Source: an uncultured Gemmatimonadales bacterium (lineage in GTDB: Bacteria; Gemmatimonadota; Gemmatimonadetes; Gemmatimonadales; GWC2-71-9). Taken from it: a stretch of 64,000 nt of DNA. The notes beneath the pieces are model-generated. The model saw only the letters and a program-made list of their open reading frames with translations, was not told the DNA's origin and did no database searches. Of this stretch, positions 43,676 through 50,538 are shown in pieces; positions within the stretch are counted from its first letter, which is position 1, and the number at the start of each line of letters is the position of its first letter. The position numbers were made by a program, and so were the translations under genes. The stretch is taken from positions 256,001 through 320,000 of the forward strand of contig CAVZZO010000001.1 in NCBI GenBank assembly GCA_963779755.1. Reading direction: 5' to 3'.

Positions 43676-44620
43676 GTGCTGATCAATCTCCTGCCGGCAT
43701 TCCTCTCCGTTCTCGACGCCGCCGACCCTGCCGCGGCCTACCGTCAATACCTCGATAATCACGCGCCGGTCCTGCGCGCCTACTGGCACAACTACGTGAT
43801 GGACCCGGACAGCCAGCCCGCGGGAGACCTGATACGCCAGACGATCGAGGCCGACCGGTCGGATCTCTGGGCGCTCATCGCATCGAGAGATATCCCGGCA
43901 CTGGCTGAAGACGCCCTGGCGCGGGCCCAGGAGACCCTCGGCATGGACCGGCCGGTCGACTGCTACCTCATGGTCGGCATGGGAGCGGCCAATGCGGGCG
44001 AGCTGGTGGTGGCAGGACAGGGTGCGCTCTTCATCGCACTGGAGCACTTCACCGGCCGGGCCAACCCCGAGACCTTCGGCCTGGGGCTCTCTCCAGAGCT
44101 GATCCCGCTCTGGATCGCTCACGAGTGCGCTCATCTCGTGCGCTACACCTCAGCCGAAAGCCGGAGCCCGCTGCGCGAGCTGATTGCCGCCATGGGCGGC
44201 TATTACGACTACTGGGAGACGGGGAGCCGCGCCTGTCTGCGCGAGCTGCTGCTCAACGAGGGCCTGGCGGTACACGCCAGCCAGGCCGTGTGCCCGGGCC
44301 TGCCGGCGCCGGAGTACTTCGGTTACGGGCGGCGGCAATATCATCGCCTGCGCGAAATGGAAGCGTTCCTCCTCCGGACCGCTGAACCGGAGCTGGACCG
44401 GGCCGCTCTGGGACTGAGACTGCGCTATCTCTCCGGGGGGATGAGCTCGCAGGCCCGGCTGGTAGGGGGGCGGGTGCTGCCGGAGCGCTCGGGCTATTAC
44501 CTGGGCTACCGCATGGCGGAGGCGCTGGTGGCCGAGCGCGGCGTCCCGGCGGCGCTGCGGGCGGAGACGAATGAGTTCCAGAGGGCACAGGGGGTGATCG
44601 AAGACCCGCAGAGCGCCTGA
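43676..44620 (+). CDS. Putative Zn-dependent protease-like protein
   Basis: WIAHECAHLVRY (HExxH), NEGLA, GYYLGY. Confidence 0.65.
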   Translation: MLINLLPAFLSVLDAADPAAAYRQYLDNHAPVLRAYWHNYVMDPDSQPAGDLIRQTIEADRSDLWALIASRDIPALAEDALARAQETLGMDRPVDCYLMVGMGAANAGELVVAGQGALFIALEHFTGRANPETFGLGLSPELIPLWIAHECAHLVRYTSAESRSPLRELIAAMGGYYDYWETGSRACLRELLLNEGLAVHASQAVCPGLPAPEYFGYGRRQYHRLREMEAFLLRTAEPELDRAALGLRLRYLSGGMSSQARLVGGRVLPERSGYYLGYRMAEALVAERGVPAALRAETNEFQRAQGVIEDPQSA

Positions 44621-44648
44621 GAGATCTTCCCGCCGAGGCTTCGGTTGC

Positions 44649-45233
44649 TCACGGGCCGATCTCGAAGACATCGGCGTGCGTCCACCACCGGCTTTCGGGA
44701 AATCTCCTTCCCAACTCCTTCCAGTAGCGCCGCAGATAGTCCAGGTCCGCCTTGTCCCGGTAATACCCGGCGACCCCCGCCCAGTAGAGCGCCTCGGCAC
44801 TGACCGGCGCCGGCGGCTCCAGATCGGCGACCGCCCGGAAACGCTCGTGGGCCTCGGCGTTGCAGCGTCGCAGCAGTTCCACCTTCCCCAGCGCCACCTG
44901 CAGCTCGGCCAGGAAATCGCGCGGAGGCTGGTAGCCCAGGAACCGCCGGACCTCCTGTTCCCGATGATCCAGCACCACGAACCCGGGAGACCAGAGGACC
45001 CGATAACGGCGTAGCACGGGCAGCACGGCCGGGTCGCGATCGGCCAGGCTCAGCGAGACGGGCACAACCTCCCGTGAGAGGAACCGCCGGACTGCATCGT
45101 CAGGATACGTCACGGTATCCATCGCCCGGCAACCCATTCACCCGGGTGCCGTAAGGGCGATGACCATGGGGCGTTCGTCGCGCACCGCCAGCTCCCGCGC
45201 GCTCTCGAGCCGTGAATGCCAGGGGATCGTCAT
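44649..45233 (-). CDS. Thioredoxin-fold + TPR-like protein with in-frame TGA (U-M-G-C): probable selenoprotein, 194 aa
   Basis: GGAGG RBS then ATG 45233: MTIPWHSRLESARELAVRDERPMVIALTAPG-TGA(45140-45138)-MGCRAMDTVTYPD... The TGA occupies the first Cys position of CxxC; downstream WSPGFVVLD and GYQPP fit the fold. Confidence 0.85.
45090..45137 (-). promoter_or_regulatory. Putative bacterial SECIS element
   Basis: Upper stem GGATAC-loop CGTGAC-GTATCC (45120-45103) starts 17 nt after the UGA; possible lower stem GGTTGC/GCAGTC; G at second loop position followed by U. Confidence 0.6.
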
Positions 45234-45269
45234 GGTCCGTCCTCCCTCCCGTCTTTCTCCCGCCCTTCT

Positions 45270-46592
45270 CTACTTCCCCACACAGAAGCTCGAAAACAAC
45301 CGGTCCAGCACCTGCTCGATATCTACGGTGCCGATCAGCGCGGCCAGATGCTCGGTTGCCTCGCGCACCTGATGGGCGGCGAGCACGGCGTCCCCACCCG
45401 GCTCCAGATGCGGCGCGGCGTGGTCCAGTGCCTGAGCGGCCCGTTCCAGGCCGACCCGGTGCCGCTCCCGGGTGAGCACCGGCTCGAGATCCAGATACTG
45501 CCCCGGTTCGGCGAACAGCAGCTCCACGCAGCGCCGCCGCAGCCGGTCCAGACCGTTCCCGCTCACCACGGAGACGCCGAGCTCGCCGTCCGGAACGGCG
45601 GCGAGGTCCGTCTTGGTCCGCACCAGCAGCGTCCGCGGGCCCAGCAACGCCCTCTCCGCCTCCTCGGGAGCGCGCCCGCTCTCGACGCAGAGCAGGACCA
45701 GGTCGGCGCCACCCAGAAAGCGGCGGCTCATGGCCACCCCCATCCGGTCTACTTCCTCGCTGAACTCCGCCAGCCCGGCGGTATCCACCAGCCGGACCGG
45801 CCAGCCGGAGAAATCGGTGTCACTCTCCACGGCGTCGCGCGTGGTGCCCGGCGTGGCGGACACCAGCACCCGGTCGCTCCCCAGCAGGGCGTTGAACAGC
45901 GAGGACTTGCCGGCATTGGGCCGGCCGGCGATCACCACGACGGCGCCTTCCCGTACCCGCTGGCCCGCCGGAGCGGTCCGCAACAGCCCGGCAACGCTCC
46001 CGCGGACCTCCCGCCAGGCCGCTCGCAGGCGATCGGCGGAGACCGGCCCGTCGTCCTCTTCGGGGAAATCCACGTCGTAGCTGAGGAGTGCCTGCAACTC
46101 CACCAGTTTCAGCCGCAACTCCTCCAGGCGCCGCGAGAGTCCTCCGTCGAGCTGGTGCAGGGCCAGCCTGGCCTGGGCGGGCGCGCCGGCATCGATCAGA
46201 TCCCCCACCGCCTCGGCCTGCACCAGGTCCAGCTTGCCGTTGAGAACCGCGCGGCGGGTGAACTCGCCCGGGGCGGCGGCCCGGGCACCGGCGGCCTGGA
46301 GTGCGGCCAGCACGGCTGCCGGCGCGACCGCTCCCCCATGGCAGATCAGCTCCACCATGGGCTCGCCGGTATAGCTCGCCGGGGCCCGGTAGGCCAGATA
46401 GATCCCCCGGTCGATCGCCTGGCCGGCCGGGGTGCGGAAACCGGCCAGCCGGGCCGTGCGCGGCGGGTCGGGGGAGAACCCCTCGATGACCCGCGCGGCG
46501 ACGCCGAAGGCGTCGGCGCCGGAGAGGCGCACGACCGCAAGCGCAGACCGCCCCGGCGGGGTTGCCAGGGCGGTAATCGGGTCGGAGAGCAT
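45270..46592 (-). CDS. mnmE: tRNA modification GTPase MnmE
   Basis: ATPPGRSA, SYTGE, CHGG, PGEFTRRA, GRPNAGKSSL, GTTRD, DTAG, FSSFCVGK. Confidence 0.97.
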   Translation of the reverse strand: MLSDPITALATPPGRSALAVVRLSGADAFGVAARVIEGFSPDPPRTARLAGFRTPAGQAIDRGIYLAYRAPASYTGEPMVELICHGGAVAPAAVLAALQAAGARAAAPGEFTRRAVLNGKLDLVQAEAVGDLIDAGAPAQARLALHQLDGGLSRRLEELRLKLVELQALLSYDVDFPEEDDGPVSADRLRAAWREVRGSVAGLLRTAPAGQRVREGAVVVIAGRPNAGKSSLFNALLGSDRVLVSATPGTTRDAVESDTDFSGWPVRLVDTAGLAEFSEEVDRMGVAMSRRFLGGADLVLLCVESGRAPEEAERALLGPRTLLVRTKTDLAAVPDGELGVSVVSGNGLDRLRRRCVELLFAEPGQYLDLEPVLTRERHRVGLERAAQALDHAAPHLEPGGDAVLAAHQVREATEHLAALIGTVDIEQVLDRLFSSFCVGK

Positions 46593-48543: not shown

Positions 48544-48863
48544 GACTCCAGCTCATTCCGCAGCGCTCCGAATCCGGCCTGGTAGGCCGGCGGACGCGCG
48601 CGGATCACGACATCCCGGGCCGGCTGCCGGCTCTGGAGATTCCGCCGCCAGATTTCCCGCAGACGCCGGCGCAAACGATTGCGGGCCACCGCGGAGGACT
48701 GATAGCGGGGAACGATCAGTCCGATCCGAGGGTGGCCCGCCGCGTTGTCCGCCCAGATCACGTCGAGGTGCTCCGTCCGGTGCCGCCGGCCGCCAGCCAG
48801 AACCCGCCGGATGTCCGAGGCCCGCGCGAGCCGCCAGGCCCGCGGAAGCCTCTCCGGCGTCAG
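48513..48863 (-). CDS. rnpA: Ribonuclease P protein component (probable CTG start)
   Basis: [25 protein letters not shown] (RNR motif), DVVIRAR. RnpA-like N-terminus [21 protein letters not shown] extends upstream of GTG 48761 to CTG 48863, which overlaps the rpmH stop. Confidence 0.88.
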
Positions 48864-49050: not shown

Positions 49051-49111
49051 AAGCTACCTACCAGACGCGGTTTCGGTCAAGGTTGACTTTTCCACATGGA
49101 GCCCGTACTAT
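49051..49111. promoter_or_regulatory. Back-to-back promoters for dnaA and rpmH with a DnaA box
   Basis: Plus: TTGACT (49083-88)-N17-TACTAT (49106-11) containing TTTTCCACA (49088-96). Minus: TTGACC (49080-75)-N18-TAGCTT. Confidence 0.75.
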
Positions 49112-49151
49112 CGTGCGCCCTTGCGAAGCCTCCCACCGTCATCCGAGTACG

Positions 49152-50538
49152 ATGCAGTTGTCCGCCAAAGAGGCATGGAAGCGTATTCTGGAAGACGCAC
49201 ATCGCGAACTTCCCGAGCATACGATCCGAACCTGGCTGGAGCCCACCGAACCGATCGCGCTGGACGACGATCGGCTGGTGCTGGGCGCCCCCGATCATTT
49301 CGCCGCCGAGTGGAATGAGTCGAAGCATGCGGGGCTGCTCGCCAAGCTCGCCGAGCCGGTCCTGGGACGGCCCACCAAGGTGGTCTTCCAGGTGCAGGAA
49401 GACCGGCAGCGCCGCCCCCAGATGGATTTTTTTGTGGCCCCCCCGCCCCCGGCGGGGGGCAGGCACGGCGCAGCGCTCCCGCACGCAGCCGCTCAACGAG
49501 CGCTACACCTTTGACACGTTCGTCATCGGCAAGTCCAACGAGTTGGCCGCCGCCGCCGCCCATGCCGTAGCCCAGGCGCCGGGCAAGACCTACAATCCCC
49601 TGTTCATCTACGGCGCCACCGGGCTGGGCAAGACCCACCTGATGCAGGCGATTGCCCATGCGGTGACCGAGCGGACACCGGGGACCCAGGTGCTCTACGT
49701 AGGCGCCGAGCAGTTCATCAACGAAGTCATCGAGAGCATCCACAGCCGGACCATGCCGGAGTTCCGGCGCCGCTACCGCACGGATGTAGACCTCTTCCTG
49801 GTGGACGACGTGCATTTCCTGGAAGGCAAGGAAATGACCCAGGAGGAGTTCTTTCATACATTTAACGCGCTGTACGAGGCCAAGAAGCAGATCGTCCTGA
49901 CCTCCGACCGCCCGCCCAAGGAAATTCCCGGGCTGGAGGCGCGCCTGGTCAGCCGGTTCGAATGGGGCATGGTGGCCGATATCGGCCAGCCCGACCTGGA
50001 GCACCGGATTGCCATCCTGCGGAAGAAGCAGGAACAGGACCATCTGGAGCTGACCATTCCCGACGATGTGCTTCGCTTCATCGCGGGACACGTCCGCTCC
50101 AGCGTGCGGGAGCTCGAGGGCTGCATCATCAAGCTGCTGCTCTACGCCTCGCTGAAGCACCGGGAAGTTTCCATCGAACTGGCCCGCGAGGCGCTGGCAG
50201 ATAAGATTAGAGTGGGCGAGGATGGCGCCGGCGCCGCGTCGCGGGCGTTGCCCACGATCGACAAGGTCCAGGAGGTCGTCGCCCGCCGCTGGGGCGTCAC
50301 GCCCGAGGGACTGCGCTCAAAGGCGCGGATCAAGTCGCTGACGGTGCCGCGCCAGATCGCCATGTTCCTGGCGCGCGACCTCCTGCAGATGCAACTGGTG
50401 GAAATCGGGATGGCGTTCGGCGGCCGCGATCACTCCACTGTGATTCACAGTGTGGACAAAGTCCAGCGGCAGATGGCCCGGGATCGCGGCCTCCGCGAGC
50501 GAATCGAGCTTGCGCGACAGGAGTTGTCCGCGCCATAA
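49152..50538 (+). CDS. dnaA: Chromosomal replication initiator DnaA (split by a +1 frameshift near 49427-49459)
   Basis: Domain I MQLSAKEAWKRIL...TWL in one frame; LNERYTFDTFVIG, YNPLFIYGATGLGKTHL, QEEFFHTFN, FGGRDHSTVIHS in the +1 frame; junction contains T7, C7 and G6 runs. Confidence 0.93.

Follow-up and report, generated by a model that had tools for sequence, protein, structure and literature searches.

A predicted thioredoxin-fold selenoprotein with a helical tail, shortened in gene calls, from an uncultured Gemmatimonadales bacterium

In the window analysed here, a 64,000-nucleotide stretch of DNA from an uncultured Gemmatimonadales bacterium, an in-frame TGA at positions 45140-45138 is almost certainly the codon for an active-site selenocysteine in a redox protein resembling thioredoxin. 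The complete gene would encode a cytoplasmic selenoprotein of 194 residues, with selenocysteine (Sec) directed to position 32 by a SECIS hairpin, a DsbD-gamma/DsbH-type domain followed by a TPR-like tail, and a role in thiol-disulfide exchange, and it would be a Gemmatimonadota member of a known selenoprotein family; we put the probability of this reading as a whole at roughly 0.93. The pairing of TGA with Cys codons in homologues, the conserved RNA helix, the Sec machinery of the genome and the fold are directly observed, and we infer that Sec is inserted into the 194-residue protein.

Gene model and the codon at the redox motif

The gene lies on the minus strand, where it reads, in order, ATG at 45233, 31 sense codons, the TGA, and ATG-GGT-TGC, giving U32-M-G-C35. 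Features of the gene and its surroundings are listed below.

44649..45233, minus strand: complete predicted selenoprotein coding sequence, 194 codons, Sec as codon 32, stop TGA 44649-44651
45241..45250, minus strand: Shine-Dalgarno-like GGGAGGGAGG, 7 nt 5' of the ATG, read directly, with a putative function
45231..45233, minus strand: ATG start codon, the point at which homologue N-termini align
45138..45140, minus strand: in-frame TGA, predicted Sec32 and first position of U-M-G-C, from TGA/Cys pairing in homologues
45129..45131, minus strand: TGC, predicted resolving Cys35 of UxxC, in a column nearly invariant in alignment A1
45103..45120, minus strand: SECIS hairpin, from the fold, covariation, synonymous-codon bias and the published bacterial SECIS model
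45120-45115, 45114-45109 and 45108-45103, minus strand: hairpin 5' arm GGAUAC, loop CGUGAC and 3' arm GUAUCC
44901..45182, minus strand: thioredoxin-fold domain (Pfam Thioredoxin_2, residues 18-111), in a fold that starts at residue 1
44673..44924, minus strand: C-terminal helical TPR-like tail, from predicted secondary structure, with a conserved E-A-L-Y-W-A-G motif
45270..46592, minus strand: mnmE, upstream on the same strand and 36 nt away (NF003661, 386.7 bits; stop TAG 45272-45270)
43676..44620, plus strand: DUF2268 gene (predicted Zn protease), downstream and convergent, ending 28 nt from the selenoprotein stop

The ORF listing under translation table 11 holds only 44649..45137, a frame of 162 residues. 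The original prediction had extended this frame by 31 in-frame codons to ATG 45233 behind GGGAGGGAGG, had read those codons as a thioredoxin N-terminus, and had placed the TGA at the first Cys of the redox motif. All of its coordinates hold on the minus strand; the upstream codons are in frame and conserved at the protein level, and the TGA falls exactly at the position where homologues pair TGA with Cys. Full-length homology continues through the TGA in tblastn comparisons with homologous loci, and the read-through protein exceeds the Pfam cut-offs for both Thioredoxin_2 (38.4 bits against 27) and Thioredoxin_7 (32.2 bits against 27). The predicted 194-residue length with a TPR-like tail also stands: the frame ends at 44649, and the structural model comprises a thioredoxin domain and a helical tail.

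Alignment of homologues at residue 32, a check proposed with the original prediction, showed 143 loci with TGA and nine with a Cys codon (TGC in six, TGT in three) among 152 distinct loci, which come from many phyla. Kinship among the sequences, which are not independent, inflates raw counts of this kind. The 152-locus count is de-duplicated and leaves out L058 (the same protein as L059), the distant CxxC thioredoxins L064-L067, which have no tail, the fragments L043 and L044, the unpublished genomes L031 and L032, the unclear L171, and L183, L218, L220 and L221, which gave no tblastn hit. Other samplings were similar: 22 TGA and two Cys among the first 24 loci (two of the 22 from unpublished genomes), 66 TGA, three Cys and one unclear among 70 scored loci, and 76 TGA and four Cys among the best 80 of 468 genome loci. 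The recoded TGA was always aligned with Cys and never with Trp or Gly, and the Cys forms, including proteins P0054, P0058 and P0061, are single unbroken ORFs.

These counts bear directly on whether the gene is a pseudogene or a sequencing error in which the first active-site Cys codon of this genome became a stop. The frame is indeed broken under table 11, and read-level support for the TGA comes from one contig at a depth of about 3, in a run that is possibly the source sample. Public contigs of this run (X1) cover only 44500-44627 and 45003-45176 of the region; the second differs nowhere listed at the TGA, which is weak corroboration of the codon in reads. Set against this reading are 142 further distinct loci with TGA at this codon, the conserved upstream codons, an RNA helix with compensatory changes at a fixed distance 3' of the TGA, and the full Sec machinery in the genome. 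As judged from the alignments, the 143/152 conservation effectively refutes a pseudogene or error, and we regard its probability as negligible.

The ATG that directly follows the TGA in this gene, and that gene callers pick as the start (45137), could instead suggest two products, a 31-residue leader ending at the TGA and a 162-residue protein, perhaps translationally coupled. The downstream ATG is not conserved, however, because in most relatives the codon after the TGA is CTG, CTC, GGG, GGC or another non-start codon. A protein of 162 residues would be missing both strand 1 of the thioredoxin fold and its nucleophile, the AlphaFold model for the read-through sequence (pLDDT 94.8, pTM 0.91) is confident from residue 1, and the Cys forms run uninterrupted through the same position. 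Two separate products are thus very improbable, and a single Sec-containing protein is the reading that we carry forward.

The downstream hairpin and the selenocysteine machinery

A 6-bp hairpin had been predicted 17 nt 3' of the TGA; its position is exact, and it proves to be the conserved element of the family. The published bacterial SECIS model specifies a loop of 3-9 nt, a stem of 4-16 bp, a G at loop position 1 or 2, a distance of 16-37 nt between the UGA and the loop, and a folding energy no higher than -7.5 kcal/mol. The hairpin combines a 6-bp stem with a 6-nt loop whose second and third letters are G and U, and this apical loop begins 23 nt after the UGA; at -7.2 kcal/mol, the isolated 24-nt hairpin is slightly short of the model energy. 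Folding energy was dropped as evidence for the hairpin: the 71-nt context that contains it (-24.6) did not exceed shuffled sequences in stability (z 0.04), the post-TGA window ranked at the 61st percentile of windows from its own gene, and the stability signal across the family was modest (mean percentile 0.34, n=141).

The reality of the hairpin rests on comparative evidence, in which covariation and synonymous constraint both support the helix. Across 102 distinct sequences the 6-bp helix was paired in 99.8% of cells, as compared with 21-46% for slid-partner controls. Pair 23-36 changed from A-U to G-C in six sequences (and to G-U in two), and pair 22-37 changed from G-C once to A-U and once to C-G. 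Among 104 Sec forms with the peptide [ML]-D-[AT]-V-T-Y, the codons were GAT in 103, ACG in all 104 and TAT in all 104, against usages of 37%, 41% and 32% for the same codons elsewhere in those genes. Rare synonymous codons thus hold the hairpin in place, and in three Cys forms with the same peptide just 3-5 of the 6 pairs are formed.

The genome encodes the machinery that such an element would require. Profile matches identified selA (526 bits), selB (325 bits) and selD (378 bits), all over curated cut-offs, and a tRNA-Sec with anticodon UCA was matched twice at 69.7 bits, also over its cut-off. The search for selA, selB, selC and selD suggested along with the original prediction has in this way turned up every component, so that on each of the three grounds for refutation named with that prediction (Sec genes, reads and homologues) the outcome favours it. 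The selD gene is itself Sec-containing, with one in-frame TGA and a hairpin after it, and the Sec trait of this genome would be in use beyond selD.

UGA has been reassigned in some uncultured bacteria, and a reassignment or read-through that was genome-wide or independent of context, with UGA decoded for example as Trp, Gly or Cys, would also carry translation past codon 32 with no need of a SECIS. The gene in the window terminates with TGA, as do 11 of 24 family genes, and the exclusive alignment of the recoded TGA with Cys, the presence of tRNA-Sec, SelA, SelB and SelD, and the in-frame TGA and hairpin of selD all argue against such a reassignment, which we consider extremely improbable. Since the terminator of the same gene is also TGA, discrimination between the two UGA codons rests wholly on the hairpin under the preferred reading of SECIS-directed Sec insertion.

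The hairpin is encoded in the peptide M-D-(A/T)-V-T-Y-P and hardly varies in its letters among Sec forms of more than 10 phyla. Where Asp is replaced by Gly, Asn or Arg, or Pro by Ala or Ser, the replacement is always paired with a compensating base on the opposite arm. Within the same phylum, a sister clade carries another hairpin, CUCGGC-UGGAU-GCCGAG, positioned 6 nt nearer the UGA, and its stem letters are those of the selD hairpin of this genome. Tentatively, the recoding signal could be a portable dual-coding module that was swapped for another hairpin in the sister clade, a proposal against which we judge the odds to lie somewhat. If true, the family would record either a SECIS conserved to an extreme degree or a gene that spread horizontally together with its SECIS, as well as one clear SECIS turnover within a single protein family, and it would be usable as a natural test set for SelB recognition across phyla.

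Fold, proposed chemistry and gene neighbourhood

We confidently predict from the AlphaFold model a thioredoxin domain of the DsbD-gamma/DsbH type joined to a helical TPR-like tail, the helices of which span residues 104-121, 125-136, 145-160, 164-177 and 182-187. The TPR_16 family matched the tail below threshold (E 0.028), and TPR Pfam families are precomputed on homologues. Two tail residues, E147 and W151, are invariant in alignment A1, as is P83, which would fit the conserved cis-proline of thioredoxin folds. The location is expected to be cytoplasmic because the fold begins at residue 1, with neither a signal peptide nor a membrane helix.

The closest structural matches were 3f9u (Z 17.4), 2lst (16.7), DsbH 2ju5 (16.2) and DsbD-gamma 1vrs (15.3), and the top Foldseek match was DsbD-gamma 1uc7; for 1uc7, 2ju5, 1vrs and 3f9u as a group, Z was 15-17 and the rmsd 2.1-2.3 over 111-122 residues. 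The best NCBIfam alignments of the protein were likewise to the C-terminal domains of DsbD and TsoB. The protein differs from DsbD and DsbH in that it is stand-alone and soluble, without a membrane domain or signal peptide, and in its helical tail and the Sec in place of the first Cys. DsbD proper, an exported protein in which the gamma domain is joined to a membrane domain, was ruled out by the length of 194 residues and the start of the fold at residue 1; with the NCBIfam DsbD model, whose cut-off is 330 bits, the score was 27.4 bits and the alignment covered just the C-terminal domain of DsbD.

In the mechanism that we propose, UGA at codon 32 would be recoded by SelB and Sec-tRNA(Sec) as directed by GGAUAC-CGUGAC-GUAUCC, so that helix 1 would carry a U-x-x-C redox centre at its N-terminus. 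The Sec32 selenolate would attack a disulfide or sulfenate of an oxidised partner, Cys35 would resolve the selenenylsulfide so formed, and the oxidised U-C pair would be re-reduced by a cellular reductase. The chemistry is most likely thiol-disulfide exchange, and the tail probably selects the protein partner.

The gene had been placed at the end of an rpmH-rnpA-yidD-yidC-mnmE operon run, and the upstream genes are confirmed as mnmE, yidC, yidD (91.4 bits), the RNase P protein (84.9 bits) and L34 (63.8 bits). With the convergent DUF2268 gene ending so close to its stop, the selenoprotein gene closes the series of genes on its strand. The 36-nt gap between the mnmE stop and the ATG and the common strand suggest co-transcription with mnmE; a scan of 44300-45400 on both strands found no promoter or terminator. 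Both the mnmE adjacency and the DUF2268 arrangement are kept only in the close Gemmatimonadales clade. Pfam searches of 104 flanking ORFs at 53 loci revealed no common neighbour partner and no conserved neighbour gene that would hint at a substrate, the neighbourhoods being otherwise unrelated.

A real selenoprotein with another role, as a dedicated reductant of methionine sulfoxide reductases (Msr), as a factor for some other client held by the tail, or as a holdase of the CnoX/YbbN type, is an unlikely alternative that draws on two observations. MsrB or MsrA-MsrB adjoins the family gene at three of the 53 loci, in three phyla (L081, L090 and L144), the other 50 being without an Msr neighbour. 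The layout, with a thioredoxin fold at the N-terminus and helical repeats after it, also recalls YbbN/CnoX, found at Foldseek ranks 16-17; however, the superposition is poor for the whole chain (rmsd 10-11 A, TM 0.38-0.41), the VIA alignment with YbbN 3qdn (Z 11.9) is limited to the thioredoxin domain, residues 1-116, and the tail, at about 85 residues, is much shorter. Exchange of thiols and disulfides with a partner probably selected by the tail is the role that we favour.

A described family and its public annotation

The gene does not represent a new family but belongs to the "thiol:disulfide interchange protein" selenoproteins, which are already described and were reportedly first predicted by Kryukov and Gladyshev in 2004. 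The original prediction had called the selenoprotein hidden, which stands for its annotation, in which gene calls are cut short, and does not stand for the family, which is already in print. Zhang et al. 2006 (PMC1794560) lists the family, and its supplement file 4 prints three founders from Geobacter and Syntrophus. The family is named "Trx-like 2" (cd02953) in the GOS study (PMC2398784) and is entered as PF13098 / UxxC / WP_011366075.1 in Table 1 of a 2026 review (PMC13188914).

The protein in the window resembles this family in exceeding the PF13098 cut-off, in the position of UxxC and in length (194 residues compared with about 187-190 for the founders), and differs in coming from Gemmatimonadota. 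By eye, the founders as printed (PMC1794560) are colinear with the protein in the window and share its motifs; for family loci L117, L149-L152 and L214, this colinearity extends from the N-terminus through the C-terminal tail. Their block D-F-F-N-P-[GN]-U-I-G-C-K-x-M-D-A-V-[AT]-Y-P, which includes the hairpin-encoding peptide M-D-A-V-[AT]-Y-P, also occurs in Desulfomonile and Syntrophales loci, and is followed in both by W-T-P, A-P-E-A-x-Y and Y-P-D-S-x-W in identical order, again by eye. Neither Geobacter nor Syntrophus aciditrophicus appeared among the 79 relatives listed or the best 80 of the 468 loci, which were found with narrow peptide patterns. The main text of the BSepDB paper mentions neither Gemmatimonadota nor this family.

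No NCBIfam model reached its cut-off on the read-through protein. TsoB, the VPGUxxT type 2 and the Trx7/PDZ selenoproteins share a thioredoxin fold with Sec in the redox motif, and their models scored 36.9 against 805, 11.6 against 275 and 11.2 against 300, respectively, which rules out assignment to these groups.

The original expectation that standard annotation would truncate the gene is borne out well beyond this genome. In public gene calls, most of 66 and most of 63 protein matches span only about 72-81% of the query, and go by the names "hypothetical" or "TPR repeat protein"; in a table counted by eye, about 62 of the 150 top cluster representatives start just past the Sec codon. Because truncation at the Sec codon by public gene callers is nearly universal, the family is undercounted in selenoproteome censuses and in the annotation of these phyla.

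What is new is modest: a Gemmatimonadota member of the family, the systematic shortening of the family in public gene calls, the near-invariance of its SECIS across phyla, and the sister clade with a different, shifted hairpin. The gene leaves the understanding of selenocysteine decoding unchanged. A genome scan with peptide patterns matched 468 species-level loci, and the 143 distinct TGA loci found here compare with three Sec-bearing organisms in the 2006 census (PMC1794560), so that a family described from three deltaproteobacteria is common in uncultured soil and sediment lineages. The near-invariant hairpin offers a simple nucleotide signature with which such genes can be found and repaired, and the gene model in the window is corrected here from a 162-residue "hypothetical protein" to a predicted 194-residue selenoprotein.

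Structure of the gene and its predicted product

The candidate selenoprotein gene lies on the minus strand and is composed of the following elements:

45250-45241, minus strand: Shine-Dalgarno-like sequence GGGAGGGAGG, 7 nt before the ATG
45233-45231, minus strand: ATG start, followed by 31 sense codons
45140-45138, minus strand: in-frame TGA that opens the redox motif U-M-G-C, followed by ATG-GGT-TGC
45120-45103, minus strand: hairpin GGATAC-CGTGAC-GTATCC, starting 17 nt past the TGA
44651-44649, minus strand: terminal TGA of the frame, giving a read-through product of 194 residues

The original prediction had described this locus exactly, from the start, the 31 codons and the TGA that gives U-M-G-C on read-through to the position of the hairpin and the end of the frame. 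Under the standard code the sole ORF listed is one of 162 codons from ATG 45137. Judging from the comparisons that follow, TGA 45140-45138 very probably encodes selenocysteine (Sec), with a probability of about 0.93.

Against Pfam, the read-through product matches Thioredoxin_2 (38.4 bits, residues 18-111) and Thioredoxin_7 (32.2 bits, residues 5-88), both with a gathering cut-off of 27, and has a sub-threshold TPR_16 match at residues 125-157. An AlphaFold2 model built from a 24-row alignment, unpublished rows omitted (pLDDT 94.8, pTM 0.91), places the thioredoxin fold at residues 1-103, with Sec32 and Cys35 at the beginning of helix 33-42, and five helices across residues 104-187. The top VIA structural match is 3f9u (Z 17.4, rmsd 2.1 Å, 122 residues), and others include the Thermus thioredoxin 2lst (Z 16.7, 3.5 Å, 127 residues), DsbH 2ju5 (Z 16.2, 2.1 Å, 117 residues) and DsbD-gamma 1vrs (Z 15.3, 2.3 Å, 111 residues). 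DsbD-gamma 1uc7 is the leading Foldseek match; YbbN, also returned by Foldseek, superposes poorly on the window protein globally. Invariant columns of the family alignment include U/C32, P83, G100, E147 and W151, of which P83 is presumably the cis-proline. Because the fold starts at residue 1, the selenoprotein is predicted to be cytoplasmic. Judging by the fold, SECIS-directed insertion of Sec would most likely yield a U-x-x-C thiol-disulfide oxidoreductase, and the helical tail may select its partner.

Conservation of the TGA and family membership

A protein search returned 66 relatives, mostly of 150-163 residues and named, if at all, "hypothetical protein" or "TPR repeat protein". Most cover only ~77-81% of the query and so begin right past the TGA position. 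Four full-length relatives among the matches carry C-x-G-C, except for one with C-G-G-S. At the DNA level, the aligned codon in the first 24 loci is TGA in 22 (two from unpublished genomes, omitted from later counts) and Cys in 2. A profile scan of species-representative genomes gave 468 loci, the best 80 of which comprise 76 TGA and 4 Cys. Of 74 new loci from another scan, started from the Desulfomonile branch, 4 had no match; the 70 that were scored split into 66 TGA, 3 Cys and 1 unclear. When the 171 pooled entries are de-duplicated to 152 distinct loci, unpublished rows omitted, the codon is TGA in 143, TGC in 6 and TGT in 3, although these loci are mutually related and represent fewer separate events than the counts suggest. 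The pairing of TGA with Cys expected at residue 32 is therefore borne out, and conservation of the TGA among homologues excludes a pseudogene or sequencing error. A leader peptide followed by a separate shorter protein is contradicted in two ways: relatives do not keep the ATG that follows the TGA, and the shorter protein would be a beheaded thioredoxin fold. General reassignment of UGA is likewise contradicted, since the selenoprotein gene itself terminates at TGA and the recoded TGA is paired with Cys only.

By record title, TGA forms, nearly all from metagenome-assembled genomes (MAGs), occur in Gemmatimonadota, Planctomycetota, Acidobacteriota, Bacillota, Methylomirabilota, Desulfobacterota, Nitrospirota, Chloroflexota, Eremiobacterota, Verrucomicrobiota, Binatia, Eisenbacteria and others. 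Cys forms are found in Chitinophagaceae, one Longimicrobiaceae MAG, one Frigoriglobus MAG, two metagenome contigs and two MAGs labelled Methanocellaceae. The last two (loci L170 and L186), with C-S-G-C and C-T-G-C, bear an archaeal label in an otherwise bacterial family and may reflect real transfer or a binning error. A weak second relative of the thioredoxin domain (G000:C1:1021868-1022062, minus strand, E 2.8e-5, on contig C1 of the window's genome) opens a 694-residue ORF without a TGA; long ORFs of this type recur throughout the phylum.

In the parts consulted of Zhang et al. (PMC1794560), the "thiol:disulfide interchange protein" selenoprotein family was recorded in 2006 from Geobacter metallireducens, G. 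uraniumreducens and Syntrophus aciditrophicus; the GOS study, likewise consulted in part, names it "Trx-like 2", cd02953 (PMC2398784). The three founding sequences in supplement file 4 of PMC1794560 are ~187-190 residues long, with a first block L-L-D-F-F-N-P-[GN]-U-I-G-C-K-x-M-D-A-V-[AT]-Y-P followed in order by W-T-P-[TS], G-F-x-P-P, A-P-E-A-[IV]-Y and Y-P-[DE]-S-x-W...R-A-x-P-Y. Compared by eye with these sequences, the Desulfomonile, delta-proteobacterial and Syntrophales loci (F-F-N-P-N-U-[IM]-G-C-K-K-M-D-A-V-T-Y-P) have the same motif series, as does the window protein in more diverged form, and on this basis we assign the window gene to the known family. The 2006 supplement and the table of a 2026 review (PMC13188914) favour reading it as a family dating from 2004 over one absent from the 2026 catalogue. 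Modestly new are the Gemmatimonadota member, the spread far beyond the three organisms of 2006, and the systematic shortening of family genes in public gene calls. Such truncation had been anticipated for standard annotation: in ~62 of the best 150 cluster representatives (table counted by eye), the protein's own residue 1-2 falls at profile positions 35-52. No NCBIfam model reaches its cut-off for the window protein, which fits the shortened annotations.

The hairpin and the Sec machinery

The hairpin downstream of the TGA is, by comparison of sequences, a conserved RNA element. Among eight sequences of the close clade the stem codons are fixed (GAT 7/8; GTG, ACG and TAT 8/8), and off the stem a single codon is kept in only 6 of 52 invariant-residue columns. 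Across 104 distinct Sec forms with the peptide [ML]-D-[AT]-V-T-Y, GAT is used in 103 and ACG and TAT in all 104, against 37%, 41% and 32% in the remainder of the same genes, and all six pairs are intact in 103; the three Cys forms with this peptide keep just 3, 4 or 5 pairs, with TAC in two. In 114 aligned Sec forms, of which 102 are distinct, 99.8% of the cells of the 6-bp helix are paired, compared with 21-46% when the 3' partner is slid by 1-3 columns. Pair 23-36, usually A-U, is G-C in six sequences and G-U in two, Asp-to-Gly there being accompanied by a synonymous TAT-to-TAC change. One sequence has A-U and another C-G at pair 22-37. At seven loci (L165, L172, L176, L177, L179, L079 and L169), the peptide that encodes the hairpin has Asp replaced by Gly, Arg or Asn, or Pro by Ala or Ser, and each change is matched by a compensating base on the opposite arm. 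Protein and RNA constraints are traded off within this peptide, and a hairpin near letter-identical across phyla and written into a conserved peptide is a further modestly new point.

The window hairpin fits the published bacterial SECIS model in its 6-nt loop, 6-bp stem, G and U at loop positions 2-3 and UGA-to-loop distance of 23 nt. In isolation it folds at -7.2 kcal/mol, narrowly short of the -7.5 kcal/mol limit stated in the portion consulted of a 2026 review (PMC13188914). In this GC-rich gene, folding energy gave no signal above shuffles (z 0.04) or the gene's own windows (61st percentile), so the case for the element is comparative.

A sister clade, ~30% identical and of the same layout, has the motif A-A-P-[MA]-U-x-G-C-A-R-L-[DE]-A-E-V and, beginning 11 nt past the UGA, a hairpin of its own, CUCGGC-UGGAU-GCCGAG, also modestly new. 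It comprises loci L033-L042, L063, L107, L113, L114, L120, L121, L123-L128, L132, L133, L135, L137, L141, L144 and L147, and genome G259 holds two copies. In 29 sequences, unpublished rows omitted, the hairpin codons CGG, CTG and GCC are fixed (29/29), GAG is kept in 28 and GCT in 24, against a 9% background for GCT.

The window's assembly (4 contigs, 97% complete) contains the anticipated Sec genes above curated cut-offs: selA (526 bits), selB (325 bits), selD (378 bits) and two tRNA-Sec matches (69.7 bits each), both assigned by ARAGORN as tRNA-SeC with anticodon UCA. By its gene content, the genome should be able to decode Sec. The two tRNA genes (C3:5596-5689, plus strand, and C4:2521-2614, minus strand; the L016/L017 pair) lie close to contig ends and may be a true duplication or a single region assembled twice. 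The selD gene (L001; G000:C1:921618-922538, minus strand, outside the window) carries one in-frame TGA of its own, in ...S-H-G-A-G-U-A-C-K..., with an 8-bp hairpin AGCUCGGC-GCC-GCCGAGCU 9 nt past it, and is itself a selenoprotein gene. The stem letters of the sister-clade hairpin are those of this selD hairpin.

Genomic neighbourhood

The strand run rpmH - rnpA - yidD - yidC - mnmE was confirmed, with the selenoprotein gene 36 nt downstream of mnmE and probably co-transcribed with it; a simple promoter and terminator scan around the gene found none. A convergent DUF2268 gene lies 28 nt past the selenoprotein stop. Both neighbours, mnmE and DUF2268, are retained in 19 close Gemmatimonadales loci (three contigs counted twice), and this synteny is absent outside the close Gemmatimonadales loci surveyed. 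At 53 other loci the neighbour genes are unrelated, with small recurrences only: PhzF in three, and in three the adjoining end of an aminoacyl-tRNA-ligase gene with Anticodon_1 and DUF5915 domains, which we take to be isoleucyl. MsrB or an MsrA-MsrB fusion is convergent beside the selenoprotein gene in 3 of the 53 (L081, L090 and L144, in three phyla), a weak lead towards a more specialised function, for instance as a reductant of methionine sulfoxide reductases.

Within the upstream run, a Pfam Ribonuclease_P match (84.9 bits) begins at residue 9 when the rnpA frame is read stop to stop. The first ATG/GTG/TTG of this frame is GTG 48761, which would cost the first 37 residues, and the sole plausible start is CTG 48861-48863 (minus strand), overlapping the rpmH stop (C-TGA read as CTG-A); this suggests a non-canonical start translationally coupled with rpmH. 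Divergent from rpmH, in the usual spot beside it, ORF 49096-50538 (plus strand) has in its translation a Walker-type G-x-x-G-x-G-K-T block and reads like DnaA, in which case the window would hold the chromosomal origin region.
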